Shown here: positions 11,101 through 19,077 of the stretch, piece after piece
Layout: each line of letters begins with the position of its first letter
Position numbering within the stretch: the first letter of the stretch is position 1
NCBI RefSeq assembly: GCF_026626745.1
Contig: NZ_JAPNJW010000002.1
Location: forward strand, 1,190,151-1,254,150
Reading direction: 5' to 3'
Source of the DNA: Nannocystis sp. RBIL2
GTDB taxonomy: Bacteria; Myxococcota_A; Polyangia; Nannocystales; Nannocystaceae
DNA length: 64,000 nucleotides
Made by a program: the position numbers and the translations under genes
The notes under the pieces: model-generated
The model's database searches: none
What the model was told of the DNA's origin: nothing
The model's input: the letters and a program-made list of their open reading frames with translations, nothing else

Positions 11101-12120
11101 ATGCCTCCCGTGCGCGACCCGCGGGTGCTCACGGCTGGCCTGGCGGCCGCTCTCGCCTGCGGGGAGCCGGCGCCCGCTGCTGCGCCCGAGGAGGACGCGC
11201 CCGCACCGACCTCGCGCCCCGCCCCGCGCCCACTCGTCCACCTCGATCCGCTCGGCCCCCGCGACCTCGACCCCGCGCGCGGGTCCTCGCCTCGCCTCAC
11301 CGTCCACCTCGAGCCGGTCGACGCCCGCGACCTCGACCTCCTGGCGCGCTGGCCCTCGCTCGCGCACTACCCCCGTGTCCCGCAGGTGCTCGCCGCCGGC
11401 CTGCGCGCGCGCGACCCCGCCGCGATCTTCCGCGGCATGGAGCTCGCCTTCGAGCCCGATCGCTGGGCCGAGATCGACGCCTGGGAGCGCCTCGGCCACA
11501 TCCGCCTCGGCGATCCCGCCGGCTTCTGCCGCACCGACGCCGGCAGCCCCGTGCGGCTGTCCCCTGGGACATACGACCTCGGCTGCCTCGGCGGCTTCCT
11601 CGAGGGCGTCCGCCTGCTGTGGTTGCCGCGACTCGAGCTCGCGGACCTCGTGCCCTGCGATCCGCCCGCCGGCTTCGAGTCGTGCCAGGACGGCGCCCAC
11701 GCCGGCCGCGCCGCCCTCCTGCAGATAGCGGCGCGCCTGCCCGCCGATGACCTCCCCCACGGCCTCGAGCTGCTCGAGCTGCGCCTCGCCGAGCTCGGCC
11801 CCGACGCCTTGATCGCCGCCCTCGTCCCCGACGCGCTCAACCTCTGCAGCGTCTCGCACCGGGCCCGCGCCCGCGGCGGCGAGCGCATGTACCATCACAT
11901 GATGATCGTCGACCCCGCCCGCGATCGCCTCGGCCGCGTGCGCGTGTTCGACACCACCGGCGCCGCCGGCGTCGCCTGGCGGTCGATGCGACCCGAGCGC
12001 CTGCACGGCTACGCGCGCCGCCTCCTGGCCCTCCACGACACCTTCCGCTACGACCCCGAGTCCGCCCGGCTCACCTGCCTCCCCGTGCGCCCGCCGGACG
12101 GCGAAATCACAGGTCCTTGA
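11101..12120 (+). CDS. hypothetical protein, probable lipoprotein
   Basis: Strong GC3 codon bias in the + frame; N-terminus MPPVRDPRVLTAGLAAALACG; the overlapping minus-strand ORF 11014..12036 is a low-complexity shadow. Confidence 0.55.
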   Translation: MPPVRDPRVLTAGLAAALACGEPAPAAAPEEDAPAPTSRPAPRPLVHLDPLGPRDLDPARGSSPRLTVHLEPVDARDLDLLARWPSLAHYPRVPQVLAAGLRARDPAAIFRGMELAFEPDRWAEIDAWERLGHIRLGDPAGFCRTDAGSPVRLSPGTYDLGCLGGFLEGVRLLWLPRLELADLVPCDPPAGFESCQDGAHAGRAALLQIAARLPADDLPHGLELLELRLAELGPDALIAALVPDALNLCSVSHRARARGGERMYHHMMIVDPARDRLGRVRVFDTTGAAGVAWRSMRPERLHGYARRLLALHDTFRYDPESARLTCLPVRPPDGEITGP

Positions 12121-12131
12121 GGACAGGTCCC

Positions 12132-12716
12132 ATGCGCCAGGTGCGAAAGTACATCCTCCGCCTCCTCGCCGTCCTGTGCGTCTGGGGCCTCGTCCATCTG
12201 CTCGTCATCGCCGTCGACGGCTGCACTGACGAGGGCCGCCCCGCCGACGTCGCGGTCGTCCTCGGCAACCACGTCAGCCCCGCCGGCGAGCCCGCGCGCC
12301 GCCTCCAGCTGCGGCTCGATCGCGCCGCCGCCCTGTACGCCGCAGGCCTCGTCCCGCGCCTCATCGTCAGCGGCGGCCAGGATCCCGGCAGCCCGCACGA
12401 GGCCGACGTCATGCGCGACTACCTGGTCGCCCGCGGCGTCCCGGCCGAGCGGATCGCCGTCGACCGCGGCGGCATCAACACCCACGCCACCGCCCGCTTC
12501 GTCGCCGCCGACCTGCGCGCCCGCGGCGAGCGCTCCGCCATCGCCGTCAGCCAGTACTACCACGTCACCCGCACCAAGCTGGCGCTGCGCCGCTTCGGCG
12601 TCGAGGCCACCGGCGCGCACGCCGACCTCGAGCTCGAGCTGCGCGAGCCGTGGTCGTTGCTGCGCGAGGTCATCGGCTTCTACGCCTACCTGTTCAAGGA
12701 CTACCGCCTCGAATAA
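12132..12716 (+). CDS. YdcF/ElyC-like DUF218 family protein
   Basis: ORF 12117..12716; Met MRQVRKY at 12132; DUF218-like AVVLGNHVSPAG...RLIVSGGQ. Confidence 0.7.
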   Translation: MRQVRKYILRLLAVLCVWGLVHLLVIAVDGCTDEGRPADVAVVLGNHVSPAGEPARRLQLRLDRAAALYAAGLVPRLIVSGGQDPGSPHEADVMRDYLVARGVPAERIAVDRGGINTHATARFVAADLRARGERSAIAVSQYYHVTRTKLALRRFGVEATGAHADLELELREPWSLLREVIGFYAYLFKDYRLE

Positions 12717-12719
12717 ACG

Positions 12720-12752
12720 GAGAGGACATGTCCGTATGAACATGCCCTCTCG
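12720..12752. repeat. GGACATGYCC-family element
   Basis: AGAGGACATGtccgtatgaaCATGCCCTCT inverted repeat between convergent genes. Confidence 0.7.
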
Positions 12753-12769
12753 AACAGCCCGAGGGTGAC

Positions 12770-13858
12770 TCAGAACTCGTCGAGGCCCTGGCCGAGCTCG
12801 ACCCCGAGCGCCTCCTGGGCGGCGGTCGGGCACGGCGACGCGAAGCGCGACTCGTAGCGGGCCGTGAACTCGGCGTTGGCGACCATCGCCTGGTCGTCGG
12901 CCTGCAGCTCGGGCAGCAGGCCGCGGACCGCGAACACCTCGATCTCGCCGACGCTGCGGGTCACCGTCGTCTGCAGGAACTCGAGCGAGAAGAACGGCTC
13001 GATGAGCTGACGGACCGCCCCGGACACGCACACCGAGTCGGGCTGTCCGACGCGCTCGACGTGGCTGGCGACGCTGACGGTGTCGCCCCACAGGTCGTAG
13101 ACCGGCTTCTTCGAGCCGAGCACGCCGGAGATGCAGGGCCCCGAGTGGAGGCCGATGCGGAAGCTCCAGTCCCACTCGTCGACGATCGGCGTCAGCCCCG
13201 ACGCCACCACCTGGGCGCAGCGCAGCGCGGCGAACGTCGCGTCGACGGCGTGCGACAGGCGGCGGTGGGGGATGCCCGAGACCGCCACGTACGTGTCGCC
13301 GGCGGTGCGCAGCTTCTCGACGCCGAACGCCGTCGTGATCTGGTCGAAGGCCGAGAAGAAGAAGTCGAGCTGCTTGAGGCAGGTGACCGGGTCGACGCGG
13401 GCGGCCAGGCGCGAGAACTGGACCGCGTCGATGAACATCACCGTCGACTCGCGGTACGCCTTGGGCTGGAGCCGCTCGCCGAGCGGCGCCGCCGACTCAC
13501 GCGGCAACACCGCCAGCGCCAGGCTCTTGTCGAGCAGGGTCGCGGTCGCCAGCTGCGACGCCAGCGCCCGCGGCGAGCGGATCGCGACGCCCACCGCCAG
13601 CACCCCGTCGGATGGCTCCAAGGACAGGTCCCATGCGACAGGTCCTTCGGGCCAGGGGTTCTCGGGCACCGCCTTGCCGCTGCTCTCGGCCAGGCTGCGC
13701 AGGAACGCCGGCGACGCGGCGCCGAACAGCGCGCCGAGGCTGGGCGCGCCGGGGCGGGCGGCCAGCCAGCGGGCCGCCGCCGGCGACACCGGGGTCACCT
13801 TGCCGTCGGCATCGACGCGCAGCGCGATCGACTCCACCAGCTCGAGGATGGCCACCAT
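12770..13858 (-). CDS. class III adenylate/guanylate cyclase with N-terminal domain of unknown function
   Basis: C-terminal CYCc domain VMFIDAVQFSRLAARVD...LRTAGDTYVAVSGIP...RIGLHSGPCISGVLG; start ATG lies 1 nt after the stop of the upstream gene. Confidence 0.85.
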   Translation of the reverse strand: MVAILELVESIALRVDADGKVTPVSPAAARWLAARPGAPSLGALFGAASPAFLRSLAESSGKAVPENPWPEGPVAWDLSLEPSDGVLAVGVAIRSPRALASQLATATLLDKSLALAVLPRESAAPLGERLQPKAYRESTVMFIDAVQFSRLAARVDPVTCLKQLDFFFSAFDQITTAFGVEKLRTAGDTYVAVSGIPHRRLSHAVDATFAALRCAQVVASGLTPIVDEWDWSFRIGLHSGPCISGVLGSKKPVYDLWGDTVSVASHVERVGQPDSVCVSGAVRQLIEPFFSLEFLQTTVTRSVGEIEVFAVRGLLPELQADDQAMVANAEFTARYESRFASPCPTAAQEALGVELGQGLDEF

Positions 13859-13859
13859 G

Positions 13860-14267
13860 TCAGAACTCTCGCACGTCCTCGAAGGTCGTCCGGGCGGCGA
13901 TGGTTTCCTCGTCGAGGTTGAGCAGGATCGGCAGCGTCTCCTGCTGCCAGTCGTCCTCCTGCAGGCGGCGGACCAGCACCGGCCCGGGCAGCAGCAGGTA
14001 CACCAGCTCGACGATGTCCATGATCACGTAGAAGCCGTTGGAGTTGCAGAACTCGAGCTCGGTGAAGTCGAGCACGCTGCGCTGGATCTCGCGCTTCGGC
14101 AAGATCTCGCGCAGGTCCTGCAGCAGGGCCGACAGATAGCGATAGGGGTTGTCGATGCGGACCACGCCCGAGAACGTGAGGGAGAAGTTCCCCTCGTCCT
14201 CGCGGGCGACGCAGTGGAACACACTGACGCCGCCGTCCATGATCTCGCCGTAGGTGAGGACGTTCAT
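13860..14267 (-). CDS. SiaC-like DUF1987 partner-switch protein
   Basis: ORF 13860..14627 trimmed to Met MNVLTYGEIMDGG (the upstream part is R-rich noise); about 135 aa; RIDNPYRYLSALLQDL and LEFCNSNGFYVIMDIVELV resemble the SiaC/DUF1987 SYPEN...LNTSS pattern. Confidence 0.55.
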   Translation of the reverse strand: MNVLTYGEIMDGGVSVFHCVAREDEGNFSLTFSGVVRIDNPYRYLSALLQDLREILPKREIQRSVLDFTELEFCNSNGFYVIMDIVELVYLLLPGPVLVRRLQEDDWQQETLPILLNLDEETIAARTTFEDVREF

Positions 14268-14779
14268 TGCGCACCTCGCAAAGGAAACACCGCCTGCATC
14301 GTCAAGTTCTCGCCCGAGTACGTCGCGGACAAGCGGAAGCGGTTCTCGGACACCAGGCGGATGAGGCCGAGCCCGCCGCGCAGCCGCTGCATGCGGCGGG
14401 CGCGGAGCGTGTCGGCGAACAGGCGCTTGGGATCCGTCGCGGTCGTCAGCCGCTCGACGCGGTCCTTGACGTCCTGGTACTGCTCGAAGGTCGCCTTGTT
14501 GGTGACCTGGACCTGCAGCGCGTCGCCGTCGATGCGCAGGTCGACGCGCATCTGGCTGCCCGGATCGCTGACGTTGTCGATCACGTTCTGGACCAGCTCG
14601 GTGATGACCACGTTGGCCTTCTTGCACAGCGCCTGCGGGTAGAACACCGTCAGCATCGCCAGCAGCGACTCGCCGACGGTCGTCGCCAGGTTGCCACGCG
14701 CGTCGCCCATCGGCGCGACCGTCAGCGTCAGGCCGACGCTGGTCGTGATCGGTTCATCGTCGAACTCGTGCTCGCTCAC
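14264..14779 (-). CDS. RsbW/SiaB-like serine kinase (HATPase_c anti-sigma-factor-type)
   Basis: GTG start (VSEHEFDD) overlaps the upstream stop as GTGA; N-box-like ELVQNVIDN and G-box RGGLGLIRL. Confidence 0.55.
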   Translation of the reverse strand: MSEHEFDDEPITTSVGLTLTVAPMGDARGNLATTVGESLLAMLTVFYPQALCKKANVVITELVQNVIDNVSDPGSQMRVDLRIDGDALQVQVTNKATFEQYQDVKDRVERLTTATDPKRLFADTLRARRMQRLRGGLGLIRLVSENRFRLSATYSGENLTMQAVFPLRGAQ

Positions 14780-15702
14780 GCCGCCCGCCTCCGCAGCACG
14801 ATGAGGGTGATGTCGTCGGCGTCGACGCGACGGAACTGCCCGTAGTCGTCGAGGCACCGCTGAAGGATCTGATTGGCCGGCAGCTCCGAGTTGGTGCGCA
14901 CGAGCTCGTGCAGCCGGCGGGTGCTGTAGTCGGCGCCCGCGCTGTCCTGCGCCTCGACCATGCCGTCCGTGTACAGCGCCAGCACGTCACCTGTCTCGAA
15001 GGGCAGCTCGTACTCGCTGTACGCGCGGCGGCGCAGGCCGATGAACGGGTCGCCCTTGTTGAACGTGTGGACCTCTCCGCCGCGGACCAGCACCCCGTAG
15101 CCGCCGCCGCACACGTAGCGGAACGTGCGCTCGCCGAACGCGACGAAGTTGACGGTGGCGTAGCGGCGGACCTCGCGGAGGAACCCGACGGTCGCGTTGT
15201 TGAGGTACTCGACGATGTCGCGCGGGCGCGACACCTGCTCCATCGTCTGGACCAGCTGGGCCTTGAGGTAGGCCATGATCAGCGCCGCCGACACCCCGTG
15301 GCCGGAGATGTCGAACACGCCGATCGCGTGGCTGCCGTCGCGCAGGCGGTAGAAGTCGTAGTAGTCGCCGCCGACCTCGGTCATCTGCTTGTGGTAGACC
15401 GAGAACTCGAAGCGCGCGAGCATCTCCGGGTGGTCCTTCGGCAGCAGCGCGTGCTGGACCTGCTGGGCGATCTCGAGGTCCTGGCGGATGGTCTGGTAGG
15501 CGCGGGCCAGCTCGCGCTCCTGCTCGTCGAGCCGCTCGTACGCGGTGCGCAGGTTGTCGTTGGTCGCCTGCCAGTAGGCGGTGTCGCGCTCGACCCGCTT
15601 GAGCAGGCCCTTGTACATCCAGAACAGCCTGCGCATGTCCTCGCGCGACAGCTCGGACAGGCGGTCGGGGTCTCGCCCCTCGAGGATCTCGTCGAGCGTC
15701 AT
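14776..15702 (-). CDS. PP2C-family protein serine/threonine phosphatase (SpoIIE/RsbU/SiaA-like) with N-terminal coiled coil
   Basis: PP2C/SpoIIE signatures GGDYYDFY, DISGHGVSAALIMA, LYTDGMVEA; stop overlaps the next start. Confidence 0.85.
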   Translation of the reverse strand: MTLDEILEGRDPDRLSELSREDMRRLFWMYKGLLKRVERDTAYWQATNDNLRTAYERLDEQERELARAYQTIRQDLEIAQQVQHALLPKDHPEMLARFEFSVYHKQMTEVGGDYYDFYRLRDGSHAIGVFDISGHGVSAALIMAYLKAQLVQTMEQVSRPRDIVEYLNNATVGFLREVRRYATVNFVAFGERTFRYVCGGGYGVLVRGGEVHTFNKGDPFIGLRRRAYSEYELPFETGDVLALYTDGMVEAQDSAGADYSTRRLHELVRTNSELPANQILQRCLDDYGQFRRVDADDITLIVLRRRAA

Positions 15703-15703
15703 C

Positions 15704-16246
15704 TCAGTGGAACTCCACCACGAGCCGGTTGGGGTCGCCGTCGTTCGTCACGTCGACGTAGTAGAGGTCGCCGGGCGCCATCACCCCGCCGATCAGCACG
15801 CCGCGCTCGATCGTCTTGTCGAACGGCGTGGACGAGCGGATCACGGCGTGGCCGCGGTCCGAGTCGAACTCGGCGAGGTCGAACGAGCCGACCACCTCGC
15901 GCGGGCCACGGATGACGCTGGCGATGCCGTGGCTGCCGGTCTGAAAGTGCAGGAAGTCGGCGCCGCGGTGGATGAGCGCCTTGCCGGGCCCGCCGTGGTA
16001 CCACAGCCGCATCATCTCGATGCCGAGCTTGAGCCGGATCGGCTCCACGTTGGCGTACGACTCGCCGACCATCCGCTCGATCTCCATCCACTTCGACAGC
16101 GGGAACCACCGCCCCATGTCGATGTCGGCCAGCAGCGCGGTGGCTCGTCGACCGGCGACGATGTTGAGGTTGACGCACGCCTGGGCGAAGCCGCCCATGA
16201 GCGCCCCGTGGACCACCGGCTCGCTCGGCTCGCTCTCGCCGCTCAT
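15704..16246 (-). CDS. hypothetical 180-aa sensor-like protein (tentatively H-NOX/V4R-like fold)
   Basis: ORF 15704..17299 trimmed to MSGESEPSEP (upstream part is frame noise overlapping the real GRAS gene); ATG overlaps the upstream stop (ATGA); spacing of hydrophobic residues and an IRSST segment are reminiscent of H-NOX YxSxR proteins, but this is not proven. Confidence 0.45.
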   Translation of the reverse strand: MSGESEPSEPVVHGALMGGFAQACVNLNIVAGRRATALLADIDMGRWFPLSKWMEIERMVGESYANVEPIRLKLGIEMMRLWYHGGPGKALIHRGADFLHFQTGSHGIASVIRGPREVVGSFDLAEFDSDRGHAVIRSSTPFDKTIERGVLIGGVMAPGDLYYVDVTNDGDPNRLVVEFH

Positions 16247-17337
16247 CCCGCCTCCCCCGAGAACGCGAACACCGCGATGATCGGCACCCCGCGGTAGGAC
16301 AGCCGCACGAGCCCGGAGCTGACCGAGGAGCGGCAGTACTCGGGCAGATCGACGTCGAGGTCGATCGCCGGGTACGGCACGAAGCCCGACTTCTTCAGCC
16401 GGAGCAGCCACGACTCGAGCGTCTCGTGACGCTCGGTGCGGAAGGCGTCGCTGGTGCCGAGGATGTCGCGGACCTCGCGGCCGAAGAAGCCCTCCTTGAT
16501 GGCGAACTTCTCGTCCGGGGACGCGTCGCTGCGGTCGACCAGATCGAACACCGTCGCGAAGTGCTGCCAACAGTGATGCATGCGCCGGGTCAGGTGCTCG
16601 GTGTCGTGGTCCGAGCTCGGCTCCACCAGCGTGAACACCCGCGGCCTCAGGGCCCGCAGCCGCCGCAGCAGGCGGGTGCGCGCGTCGCTGTCGGGGCCCG
16701 TGGTGTGGTGCAGCGTGTAGGCCGCGTTGATCGACAAGCTCCCCTCGGCGAGCGCCTCGAAGTGCGCGTAGTCGGCATCCTCGCAGACCTCGATCAGCTT
16801 GACCAGCGGATAGATCTCGATGTCGAACGGCAGCTCGGCGCGGACCTCGTCGATCGCGGCCACGCCCTCGTTCAGGGCGGTGCGGTTCGGCTCCAGCGCG
16901 ATCACGCGGAGGCGCTCGATCTTGCCGGGATCGCGCGCGAGCGCCCGCAGCAGCGCGACGATCTGCAGGCCCTTGCCGATCCCGATCTCGAGCAGCGCCG
17001 GCGTGCTCGACTGCCGCATCGCGTGAACGAGGTACTGGTTGGCCAGCGCGTAGCCCTGCGGCACCGCCGGGATCGCCCGCTGCAGCAGCGTGAACAGGTC
17101 GATCTGCGGCCGCTTCTCGGCTTGCAGGTACAAGTTCCGCCCCGACAGCAGGTTGCGGTCGATCCGTCGCAACAGCGACTCGGCGACGATGTGGGACAAC
17201 AGCGCGTCGCTCGGGACATCGACGTCGAGGGCGTCGAGGAGCTGGCTCGCTATCACCGTCTTGGCGACCTGCTCGCGATGCCGGCGAATGTCCTGGCACG
17301 CGGCCAAAATCAGCTTGTAGCGGTCCTCGTAGAGCAT
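16243..17337 (-). CDS. bacterial GRAS-family protein (Rossmann methyltransferase-like fold)
   Basis: ORF 16243..17484 trimmed to ATG MLYEDRYKLIL at 17337; LEIGIGKGLQ nucleotide-binding-like motif; C-terminal RTERHETLESWLLRLKKSGF resembles the GRAS RVER/SAW region. Confidence 0.55.
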   Translation of the reverse strand: MLYEDRYKLILAACQDIRRHREQVAKTVIASQLLDALDVDVPSDALLSHIVAESLLRRIDRNLLSGRNLYLQAEKRPQIDLFTLLQRAIPAVPQGYALANQYLVHAMRQSSTPALLEIGIGKGLQIVALLRALARDPGKIERLRVIALEPNRTALNEGVAAIDEVRAELPFDIEIYPLVKLIEVCEDADYAHFEALAEGSLSINAAYTLHHTTGPDSDARTRLLRRLRALRPRVFTLVEPSSDHDTEHLTRRMHHCWQHFATVFDLVDRSDASPDEKFAIKEGFFGREVRDILGTSDAFRTERHETLESWLLRLKKSGFVPYPAIDLDVDLPEYCRSSVSSGLVRLSYRGVPIIAVFAFSGEAG

Positions 17338-17631
17338 GCGCCGCAGACTGAAGGTCACACAGGGGATCCGCCTTGGCAAGCTGATGCGCACCCGATCGTG
17401 GCCGAGAAGATTATCTCGGCCCTCGCGCGGAAACGCGCCGCGTAGCCTGGCGCAGGCCCCGTCGGCCTCTGTCTCAAAGACCACCCAGCGGCGCTACCGG
17501 ACCGCGGGCCACTGCGCAGGTCGCGTGCGGCAGAGGACCGCGACGGCGTGCGACGGACTGCATCTTGAGACATGGTCCGAAAACCATGACGCGGCGCGGC
17601 GAACCGGGCCAAAGTGGCACGAAAGCAGGCC

Positions 17632-18159
17632 TCACGCGGCGGCGGCGCCGCCAGCCATCTGCACCTCTGCAGCGGCGCTCGCCAGCGATCGCAGCTCGAG
17701 CCCGACCTCGAAGCTCAGCGCGGTCGCGCCGACGCGGCCGCGTTGGCTCTCGCGGTGAACTTCTACGGCGAGCGTCACGTGCGTCGCATTCGGTACTCTG
17801 CCGCTGCGGAAGCGCACCGTCGCGATCGCAGTCAGCGGCTCCCCCACCAGCACCTCACCGAAGCGCCGCACGCGGCTGATGCTGCGCAGCGTGAGCGCGA
17901 CGTCGCGGAACGGCTCGCTGTGGGCCAGGGCCGACAGCGCCCGACCGAATGCGACCGGCAGCGGACAAACTCGACCCCACGGCTCCGGCGCGCCGCCGCC
18001 GGACACGCTCCCGGTCGACAGCATCTCCTCTCCGCAACCCACTACCTGTCCCAAGAAGCTGGACTCCACATGCGCAGTCAGATCGGCCGGCTTCACCGTG
18101 AAGGTAGAAGTCGTCAAGACCGTTCCGACGCTGAGAGATCCGAGATCGTGTGCGAGCAT
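17632..18159 (-). CDS. hypothetical protein, possibly hotdog-fold (thioesterase/MaoC-like); atypical codon usage
   Basis: AGGAGG 8 nt upstream of ATG; many rare codons for this genome (gca, gga, tct, ttg, act, gta, aga); lies in a lower-GC island 17340-18440. Confidence 0.4.
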   Translation of the reverse strand: MLAHDLGSLSVGTVLTTSTFTVKPADLTAHVESSFLGQVVGCGEEMLSTGSVSGGGAPEPWGRVCPLPVAFGRALSALAHSEPFRDVALTLRSISRVRRFGEVLVGEPLTAIATVRFRSGRVPNATHVTLAVEVHRESQRGRVGATALSFEVGLELRSLASAAAEVQMAGGAAAA

Positions 18160-18438
18160 GACGCGGCCTCCTTGGAATTAGCGTGCCGCCCACTGCCGCG
18201 ATTTGCACGCCAGATCACGCCCAGCGACGATGTGTGCGTCTTCCTCCGCCGTGGATCGCGAGCATCGCCGCAGATCCGGCGAATTTCTCGGCGTCGGCGC
18301 CGATCGTGCGCATGACCGCCTGCTTGCATCGCACGGCGAAATGATCTTCACACGCCTCTTGCGCTGCGAATTCGACGCGATCTCCAGCGCGATCTCTTGC
18401 GCGTGCAACAACGACGGCGGTTCGCACGACCTCTCCGT

Positions 18439-19077
18439 GTGCTCCTCGACTTCCTCGCACCGCCGGTGTGCATCGCCTGTCGTCACCTCCTCCGGGCCCC
18501 GCCCACCGGGGGCATGCCGCCCCTGTGCAGTCGCTGCGCTCCCGAGCTCGCGCTGCTCGACCCGGCCGCGCGGCGCGTCGGCGACGTGGAGGCCTGCTTC
18601 CTTTATGACGGCCCGCTCGCCGCGGCCGTCCGGCGGCTCAAATTCGTCGGCGAGCTCGAGCTCGCCGGGCCGCTGGGCCGGCTCCTCGCCCACGCGTCGG
18701 TGTGGCGCGAGGGCTGGGATCTCGTCGCGCCGGTGCCCCTGCACTGGCGCCGCGCCCTCGCCCGCGGCTTCAACCAGGCCGCCTTGCTGGCTCGCTGGGC
18801 CGCCCGCGAGCACCCGACCGGCGCCCGCCTCGACCCGCGGCTCCTGCAGCGCACGCGCGCCACGCCGCCGCAGAGCGAGCTCGACGGTCCGGCGCGCCGC
18901 GACAACCTGGCGGGCGCGATCGTCGTGCGGGCCGGGCGGTCGCTCGTCGGCCGGCGCGTCCTCGTGGTCGACGACGTGACCACCACCGGCGCCACCCTGA
19001 CCGCCTGCCTCGCCGCCATACGGGCCGCAGGGGCCGCCCGCGCCGCCGGGCTTGCCCTCCTGCGGTCCGCTTTGTAG
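18439..19077 (+). CDS. comF: ComF-family phosphoribosyltransferase-domain protein
   Basis: ORF 18397..19077; likely GTG start at about 18439 (VLLDFLAPPVCIAC); two CxxC pairs then PRTase motif VLVVDDVTTTGATL. Confidence 0.75.
   Translation: MLLDFLAPPVCIACRHLLRAPPTGGMPPLCSRCAPELALLDPAARRVGDVEACFLYDGPLAAAVRRLKFVGELELAGPLGRLLAHASVWREGWDLVAPVPLHWRRALARGFNQAALLARWAAREHPTGARLDPRLLQRTRATPPQSELDGPARRDNLAGAIVVRAGRSLVGRRVLVVDDVTTTGATLTACLAAIRAAGAARAAGLALLRSAL

Follow-up and report, generated by a model that had tools for sequence, protein, structure and literature searches.

Among the described systems closest to the one presented here, RsbQ/RsbP-PAS is a bipartite module with PPM phosphatase, histidine kinase or GGDEF outputs (PMC3183031), and in the SiaABCD system of Pseudomonas aeruginosa the unphosphorylated form of SiaC activates the cyclase SiaD (PMC8457831, PMC7647112). 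Coiled-coil linkers are common to PPM phosphatases and diguanylate cyclases as well as to histidine kinases (PMC12143880). The fold class of H-NOX, V4R and TRAPPC3 has cavities that generally hold hydrophobic ligands (PMC10933270), and the GRAS genes of plants are held to descend from a gene of soil bacteria (PMC9942845, PMC12448838). Here we analyzed a stretch of 64,000 nucleotides from Nannocystis sp. RBIL2 (contig NZ_JAPNJW010000002.1, positions 1,190,151 to 1,254,150 of the forward strand), hereafter the window. Positions 15704-17337 of the window are exactly filled by two minus-strand genes, named A and B, as judged from the frame plot and the translations. Gene A encodes a bacterial GRAS-family protein, and gene B a small cytoplasmic protein of the H-NOX fold with its haem ligands apparently lost, for which the role of a sensor domain is well supported. 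The two genes head an operon that continues with a PP2C-type phosphatase and ends with a class III nucleotide cyclase.

Raw lists of open reading frames are crowded, since the window has 72% GC; the genes were called from a frame plot of third-position GC (GC3) together with the translations. An earlier note on this DNA had described the GRAS gene as translationally coupled to its small neighbor by an ATGA, and this overlap was indeed read from the sequence. It is also present in five Nannocystis genomes, with short gaps elsewhere. For gene A, the NCBI start is a GTG at 17358, 21 nt upstream of the ATG used here, but the alignment of orthologues begins at the ATG instead. The elements of the pair are as follows.

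16243..17337, minus strand: gene A, ATG at 17337, 364 aa, starting MLYEDRYKL; bacterial GRAS-family protein
16969..16995, minus strand: predicted S-adenosylmethionine (SAM)-binding motif I of A, LLEIGIGKG, residues 115-123
16243-16246, minus strand: ATGA overlap of A and B, formed by the TGA stop of A and the ATG of B
15704..16246, minus strand: gene B, ATG at 16246, 180 aa, starting MSGESEPS; cytoplasmic, H-NOX fold
15827..15841, minus strand: IRSST segment of B, residues 136-140, within the conserved (H/R)-S-(S/T)-T-P-F

Gene B, its fold and its linker helix

Homologues of B form 82 clusters, every one labelled hypothetical, and scans of B against Pfam and NCBIfam returned no family, even at permissive thresholds (for Pfam HNOB, PF07700, none at E up to 10). 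An alignment of 54 B sequences, with a mean column identity of 38%, was used to generate an AlphaFold model of B (pLDDT 90.9, pTM 0.88). When this model was submitted to Foldseek, the top 47 matches were all H-NOX or soluble guanylate cyclase proteins, with probabilities of 0.99-1.0. The H-NOX fold spans the whole B domain of 180 residues, including the N-terminal helical subdomain typical of H-NOX. From the hydrophobic periodicity of the protein, the earlier note had guessed an H-NOX or V4R fold, and the structural search bears out the H-NOX part of this guess. As to V4R, B has no match to the V4R profile (Pfam PF02830) and no four-cysteine zinc site. The structural match of B to V4R and XylR-DmpR sensory domains and to TRAPPC3 (PMC10933270) is lower than to H-NOX, and the N-terminal helical subdomain sets B apart from them.

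At the sequence level, the profile of the B family searched against PDB sequences gave noise only, with no H-NOX among the matches, and hhalign of B with Tt H-NOX (the sequence used is identical to 1U4H) gave a probability of 0.2. No histidine or arginine is found among the columns that are at least 90% conserved in the 54 sequences; hence the proximal histidine and the YxSxR propionate clamp are absent from B. The residue at His100 varies in the family (H, E, R, Q, Y, A, S, T or K), and position 137 is H, R or Y. The conserved elements of the family comprise AQAC (with the near-invariant C24), Y64, IEMM-x2-WY (76-83), GPG, F-Q-T-G-S (101-105), (H/R)-S-(S/T)-T-P-F (137-142), the near-invariant E147, G-V-L-I-G-G and P-G-D. 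Among these, S138, T140 and P141 reach 90% conservation or more, and their motif sits where strand 2 meets helix G, which would be about where H-NOX has YxSxR. Following the secondary-structure register of the model, the conserved residues appear to map to helices and strands lining the haem cavity of H-NOX.

Since B has neither sequence similarity to H-NOX nor the proximal histidine and YxSxR, canonical binding of haem or gas by this protein is not expected. The earlier note had compared B to gas- or ligand-sensor folds; in our reading, B would bind a small-molecule ligand. The B family defines a sensor domain that is absent from Pfam and NCBIfam.

An exhaustive profile search over 1.84 billion representatives found 209 proteins with B at E up to 1e-3, 170 of them at E up to 1e-10. 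The full-length matches include both stand-alone proteins, of about 180 aa, and multidomain ones, of 300-1500 aa, with B at the N-terminus of the latter. Pfam analysis of ten fusions identified PAS-HisKA-HATPase-receiver(-Hpt) hybrids, one bare HATPase protein and one GGDEF protein, and left the first ~180 residues without assignment. Reading of the sequences extended this set to further GGDEF proteins and to fusions with Ser/Thr kinases, with class III cyclases and with a Zn-ribbon. In all 44 fusions inspected, a signature helix lies 20-40 residues after the B domain. Its pattern is L-x-W-(K/R)-(Y/H)-(K/R)-x-L, followed after ~10 residues by (F/Y)-W-x-x-(T/S)-N-x-x-L-x-x-A; it was detected by a regular expression in 24 fusions and by eye in the remainder.

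The protein encoded by the next gene of the window, C, opens with the same signature helix (residues 26-58), and its PP2C domain follows at 122-306. Since the helix that follows a fused B opens C, B and C together constitute a split "sensor, helix, output" protein. The helix of C is probably a coiled-coil linker. A similar arrangement is seen in two loci devoid of both GRAS and PP2C genes (L017 and L028), where the gene after B encodes a histidine kinase that opens with the signature helix. The GRAS-less locus L042 encodes an in-frame fusion of B with the helix, on a contig that stops before the output domain, and L030 has an extra HPt-kinase bearing the helix. Gene C and the genes that follow it are positioned as listed below.

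14776..15702, minus strand: gene C, PP2C/SpoIIE-type phosphatase, 308 aa; 1 nt between the B stop and the C start
15529..15627, minus strand: N-terminal signature helix of C, LFWMYKGLLKRVERDTAYWQATNDNLRTAYERL, residues 26-58
14264..14779, minus strand: gene D, GHKL-like (RsbW/SiaB-like), 171 aa, GTG start at 14779, GTGA overlap with the C stop
13860..14267, minus strand: gene E, putative STAS/SiaC-like phosphoprotein, 135 aa, ATGA overlap with D
12770..13858, minus strand: gene F, class III nucleotide cyclase, 362 aa; 1 nt between the E stop and the F start
12720..12751, minus strand: terminator-like hairpin, 14-bp stem with a T-rich tail, 19 nt past the F stop

Every junction from A to F is an overlap or a 1-nt spacer. 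This tight packing indicates a six-gene operon that runs from 17337 to 12770 with zero intergenic space, and A and B stand at its head, as the earlier note had proposed.

Several other arrangements of B were observed. The contigs of L017 (4667-6121) and L028 (4958-6423), in which B adjoins the histidine kinase, are binned as metagenome-assembled genomes (MAGs) of Thorarchaeota and Heimdallarchaeota, respectively. The B proteins of L017, L028 and L042 are ~70% identical to those of GRAS-linked spirochaete cassettes, and sequence comparison suggests recent transfer or mis-binning for the two archaeal-binned loci. In L053 (23-3049), a B-GGDEF fusion is flanked on one side by a cytochrome P450 fragment and on the other by an FA_hydroxylase gene with a translational overlap; these neighbors hint that the ligand of this branch of B is lipid- or terpenoid-like. 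Finally, in P0079, P0080, P0082 and P0165 (L058:5168-6097), B and the helix are followed in the same protein by a short Cys-rich module at the C-terminus, with the sequence LPICASCKKIRDD-GYW...FSHGICPEC. The module has no Pfam assignment in P0165, the sole one of these proteins for which domains were returned.

The GRAS protein and its linkage to B

The match of A to the Pfam GRAS model (PF03514) reaches 123.4 bits over residues 43-323 (E 1.4e-35, cutoff 27), and a near-identical NCBI protein is already named "GRAS family protein [Nannocystis pusilla]". Plant GRAS proteins are the sole matches of A among PDB sequences, the best being SCL7 (1.9e-15, residues 24-324), followed by SCL3, RGA, SCR, NSP2 and SHR. 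The similarity is therefore full-length and specific to GRAS, rather than that of a generic Rossmann fold, and the identity assigned to A in the earlier note is confirmed. Indeed, the full-length GRAS architecture, a helical cap and a Rossmann core, is present in A.

Motif I of the cassette orthologues reads (E/D)-I-G-x-G-x-G-x-Q, in which G119, G121 and Q125 are invariant and residue 117 is always acidic. G123 is invariant in one alignment (A2) and at least 90% conserved in another (A4), and strand 2 ends in an acidic residue, D/E149, that is at least 90% conserved. Furthermore, invariant polar residues are densely set in A (N204, H210, H211, E239, H244 and ERHE 302-305). After plant GRAS, the nearest structural neighbors of A are small-molecule and natural-product methyltransferases and CmoA, not protein methyltransferases. 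As far as its sequence can tell, A is a genuine GRAS protein with the predicted SAM-binding site intact, and probably a SAM-dependent methyltransferase. Zhang, Iyer and Aravind (2012, Bioinformatics 28:2407; see PMC4279901) reportedly predicted bacterial GRAS proteins to be active small-molecule methylases, a prediction that the putative SAM-binding residues retained in A fit. Many plant GRAS members differ in this respect from the cassette GRAS proteins, which keep the canonical SAM motif I. The plant proteins are binding scaffolds and act via their binding partners.

Conservation of the cassette was surveyed by a pattern scan with one genome per species, which gave 46 loci, and by tblastn with six window proteins. 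The GRAS gene is directly upstream of B in 42 of the 45 assessable loci, and these 42 are distributed among Nannocystis, Polyangiaceae, other Myxococcota and many MAGs of Spirochaetota. As long as the contig continues, genes C, D and E come next in this same order, and the spacing is short throughout. F comes after E in 24 loci; it was not found after E in 12, some of which have a contig ending soon after E. In a spirochaete cassette lacking the cyclase (L046:2655-3020), the gene after the STAS-like one encodes a small protein with PilZ-like motifs (RRxxxR ... NxSxxG).

A second architecture links GRAS to B independently of the cassette. In L050 (1268-5126) and L060 (1769-5741), the GRAS gene is followed by an alpha/beta hydrolase gene and then by a fusion of B, the helix and a class III cyclase. 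L060 was found via its GRAS gene, apart from the seven fused B proteins whose surroundings were looked up, and the B domain of its fusion was confirmed by hmmsearch (1.5e-67). The two GRAS proteins share 69% identity and a TerB-like C-terminal tail. The best match of the L050-type hydrolase is the uncharacterised hydrolase 6tj2 (1e-26), and the next are the group of plant SABP2, hydroxynitrile lyase, polyneuridine-aldehyde esterase (PNAE) and pheophorbidase. Several members of the SABP2/hydroxynitrile-lyase/PNAE group are small-molecule methylesterases. The presence in a row of a methyltransferase fold, a methylesterase family and a sensor with a hydrophobic cavity suggests the writing, erasing and reading of a methylated small molecule. 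The architecture of L050 and L060 also recalls the plant pairing of GRAS with alpha/beta-hydrolase hormone receptors.

A proposed circuit and its alternatives

The genes downstream of B resemble those of a partner switch. C matches Pfam SpoIIE with 98 bits over residues 122-306, and the metal-binding motifs DISGHG, YTDG and DDIT are visible; this agrees with the phosphatase that the earlier note had placed in such a switch. Its match to NCBIfam SiaA (2e-20) is far below the curated cutoff of that model. D has a weak HATPase_c match (E 0.0036, below cutoff) and a match to the NCBIfam slr1658 superfamily at 8e-9 (35 bits vs a cutoff of 100). It keeps the N-box (ELVQNVIDN) and the G2-box (GGLGLIRL), and the adenine-contacting Asp of its G1-box is an invariant Asn (VTNKA) in 29 of 29 orthologues; kinase activity of D would still be plausible. 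In E, the invariant FCNSNGF aligns to FMDSSG of SpoIIAA, with S76 on phospho-Ser58. SpoIIAA is also the best PDB match of the E family profile (E 0.035), and Pfam scans of 28 E members gave SiaC in 9 (best 9.7e-5) and STAS or STAS_2 in 7 (best 7e-5). F scores 125 bits on Pfam Guanylate_cyc (residues 131-295). Where class III adenylate cyclases have their substrate-specifying Lys, the F of the window (EKLRTAGD) has Arg, and so does that of L002 and L005, the two closest Nannocystis genomes compared for this motif; 17 other F orthologues carry the adenylate-type Lys (EKIKTIGD), save one with Thr (L007). The ~130 N-terminal residues of F have no family assignment.

Around the operon, a scan of 12000-19000 matched no Rfam RNA family, and a scan for sigma-70 promoters found none, as expected for a myxobacterium with 72% GC. 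Upstream, an open reading frame of 175 aa (window 17632-18159, minus strand) has moderate GC3 and no family match; between it and gene A lie ~295 nt that are apparently non-coding. Its product is 52-100% identical among Nannocystis genomes and adjoins the GRAS gene in some of them only; because of this inconsistent adjacency it was left out of the system in spite of its conservation. About 1 kb upstream of the operon lies a divergent gene for a ComF/GntX-type phosphoribosyltransferase with a double zinc ribbon (window 18397-19077, plus strand). A reading of the locus as a defence system was dropped: PADLOC gave just a generic cyclase match, of F to PycC.

In the circuit that we propose, A would make, or methylate, a small molecule that is read by B, which is the most likely role of A. 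B would be, in effect, the detached sensor domain of phosphatase C, and a change in its ligand state would act on the N-terminal helix of C and thereby switch the PP2C domain. C and D would then set the phosphorylation of Ser76 on E. Unphosphorylated E would control the cyclase F, as SiaC does with SiaD, and with it the level of cyclic AMP (cAMP) or a related nucleotide. On this reading, the input module would consist of two parts, the enzyme A and the sensor B, as with RsbQ and RsbP-PAS. The earlier note had also seen the pair as the input module; the sensor role of B in this claim is well supported, and the GRAS protein may be the maker or modifier of the ligand.

The steps of this chain differ in strength. 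It is highly probable that B acts on C, and action of the partner switch on the cyclase is somewhat probable; action of the GRAS protein on the ligand of B is put forward tentatively, at a little under an even chance. For the whole chain, from GRAS through B, C/D and E to F, we see the balance as even. The gene structure, the folds, the families of A, C and F, the conserved linkage and the succession of B, helix and output are observed. Ligand binding by B, its contact with C, the phosphorylation steps and the control of F by E are inferred, and so, most of all, are the substrate and the catalytic role of A.

Several observations weigh against the proposed circuit. The cyclase is not a universal output, since F is missing after E in 12 loci. 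Of seven fused B proteins whose surroundings were looked up, six have no GRAS gene nearby, the seventh (P0176) being of the L050 type, and many GRAS genes of related subfamilies have no B gene nearby, as in L047, L061, L063 and L065. An adjacent GRAS is not needed for B to work, because the GRAS-less, kinase-linked B proteins are ~70% identical to cassette B; the idea that A makes the ligand of B is thereby weakened. Likewise, the invariant Asn at the G1-box position means that D may not be an ordinary ATP-dependent kinase, and it may be a pseudokinase or use another nucleotide. The matches of E to STAS and SiaC are all below the family thresholds. B is a self-sufficient sensor, and GRAS an accessory of particular B-based circuits. 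As to the surroundings of the related GRAS genes, several are solitary or have other partners. The more distant one in L047 (2-2595; 34% identical) is translationally overlapped by an upstream gene for a GAF-HisKA-HATPase histidine kinase and has a convergent alpha/beta hydrolase gene opposite, a further bacterial GRAS gene set among signalling genes, and the one in L061 lies beside fatty-acid desaturase and MBOAT genes.

Other roles for the GRAS protein were also considered. It could be a non-catalytic regulatory subunit that binds SAM, S-adenosylhomocysteine or another metabolite and signals to B or the phosphatase by contact. Plant GRAS proteins, the closest structural relatives of A, work as scaffolds of this kind, and strict co-occurrence and translational coupling would suit a stoichiometric complex. 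However, A has conserved both motif I and the acidic residue for ribose binding, in the manner of active class I methyltransferases, and its many invariant charged residues, from N204 to ERHE 302-305, resemble an active site, so that a purely regulatory subunit seems unlikely. Alternatively, the GRAS methyltransferase could be the output of the partner switch, bound or controlled by E (or D), with the cyclase as an optional second target. Indeed, among the loci of the genome scan with a stand-alone B, GRAS accompanies PP2C, D and E, and those in which a histidine kinase is the partner of B lack it; moreover, the 12 loci that keep A to E without F found leave A as the sole conserved candidate effector. 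Against such a role, L050 and L060 link GRAS to a B-cyclase fusion without PP2C, D or E. GRAS therefore accompanies B and a cyclase even where the partner switch is lacking, and we consider its role as an output decidedly unlikely.

It can also be imagined that GRAS methylates a protein of the cassette, at a Glu or Cys of B or E, for adaptation or memory as CheR does, with the L050-type hydrolase as the demethylase. A methyltransferase and a hydrolase of a methylesterase family do adjoin the sensor in L050 and L060, and Cys24 and Glu147 of B are near-invariant. Yet the structural neighbors of A point to small molecules, the window cassette has no esterase, and the SABP2/MES/PNAE family acts on small-molecule methyl esters, which makes protein methylation very improbable. 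We give still less weight to the last alternative, in which B is a true haem gas sensor with unconventional ligands such as Cys24, Met78/79 or Tyr64. The best structural matches of B are H-NOX proteins, and these four residues, all conserved, could serve as ligands of a metal centre. But there is neither an HNOB match nor any H-NOX similarity in the profile searches, the proximal histidine and the YxSxR are missing, and the distant fused members have kept neither Cys24 nor the STTP motif.

The annotation of A as GRAS, the fold classes and the logic of the partner switch are already known. Literature searches on GRAS with H-NOX and on slr1658/slr1659 returned nothing relevant. Within the libraries and literature searched, the H-NOX-fold, apparently non-haem sensor family with its signature linker helix appears to be new, as do its split arrangement with a PP2C phosphatase and the conserved way in which it is coupled to a GRAS protein of bacteria and to a class III cyclase. 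The B domain heads ~200 clusters, including kinases, cyclases and GGDEF proteins.

Plant GRAS regulators include DELLA, SCARECROW and NSP1/2, and we know of no bacterial GRAS protein of known function. Since the GRAS protein of the window sits in a defined circuit with a sensor, a phosphatase switch and a cyclase read-out, substrate, ligand and output are all assayable. With a bacterial circuit that is defined, conserved and amenable to experiment, the ancestral, pre-plant function of GRAS becomes directly testable. A further reading, which we hold doubtful, is that GRAS ancestrally methylated a hormone-like small molecule read by an H-NOX-fold receptor, with an eraser of the SABP2/MES type in some lineages. 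If this is true, the bacterial circuit, as writer, eraser and reader of a methyl-ester signal, would drive cAMP and would prefigure the pairing of GRAS with alpha/beta-hydrolase hormone receptors in plants.

Comparison with known systems

With HnoX-HnoK and soluble guanylate cyclase, B shares the same fold over 180 residues, and in both cases the sensor lies beside a signalling enzyme or is fused to its N-terminus, cyclases included. In contrast to these proteins, B has no detectable sequence similarity to H-NOX and no proximal histidine or YxSxR, and its linker is a distinct signature helix instead of HNOBA/PAS.

The organization of the operon is close to that of SiaABCD, in which a PP2C phosphatase, a kinase, a small STAS-like phosphoprotein and a nucleotide cyclase are encoded together; in the window, D and E would take the places of the kinase and the phosphoprotein. 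However, the cyclase of the window is of class III (cAMP/cGMP type) and not a GGDEF protein, and its sensor is a soluble H-NOX-fold protein, whereas that part of SiaA is a membrane/HAMP region. The window has, in addition, the GRAS gene, and the ATP site of D is atypical.

The logic of the input resembles that of RsbQ/RsbP-PAS in the energy-stress branch of sigma-B in Bacillus subtilis (PMC3183031). In both systems, a gene for a small-molecule enzyme (a presumed one in the window) adjoins a cytoplasmic sensor domain, and the sensor is followed by a helical or coiled-coil linker and a PPM/PP2C phosphatase; as in Bacillus, the phosphatase of the window would remove the phosphate from a putative STAS protein. 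The components themselves differ: the enzyme of the window has a GRAS methyltransferase fold and is not an alpha/beta hydrolase, its sensor is a separate polypeptide of the H-NOX fold instead of a PAS domain, and in place of a sigma factor its likely output is a class III cyclase.

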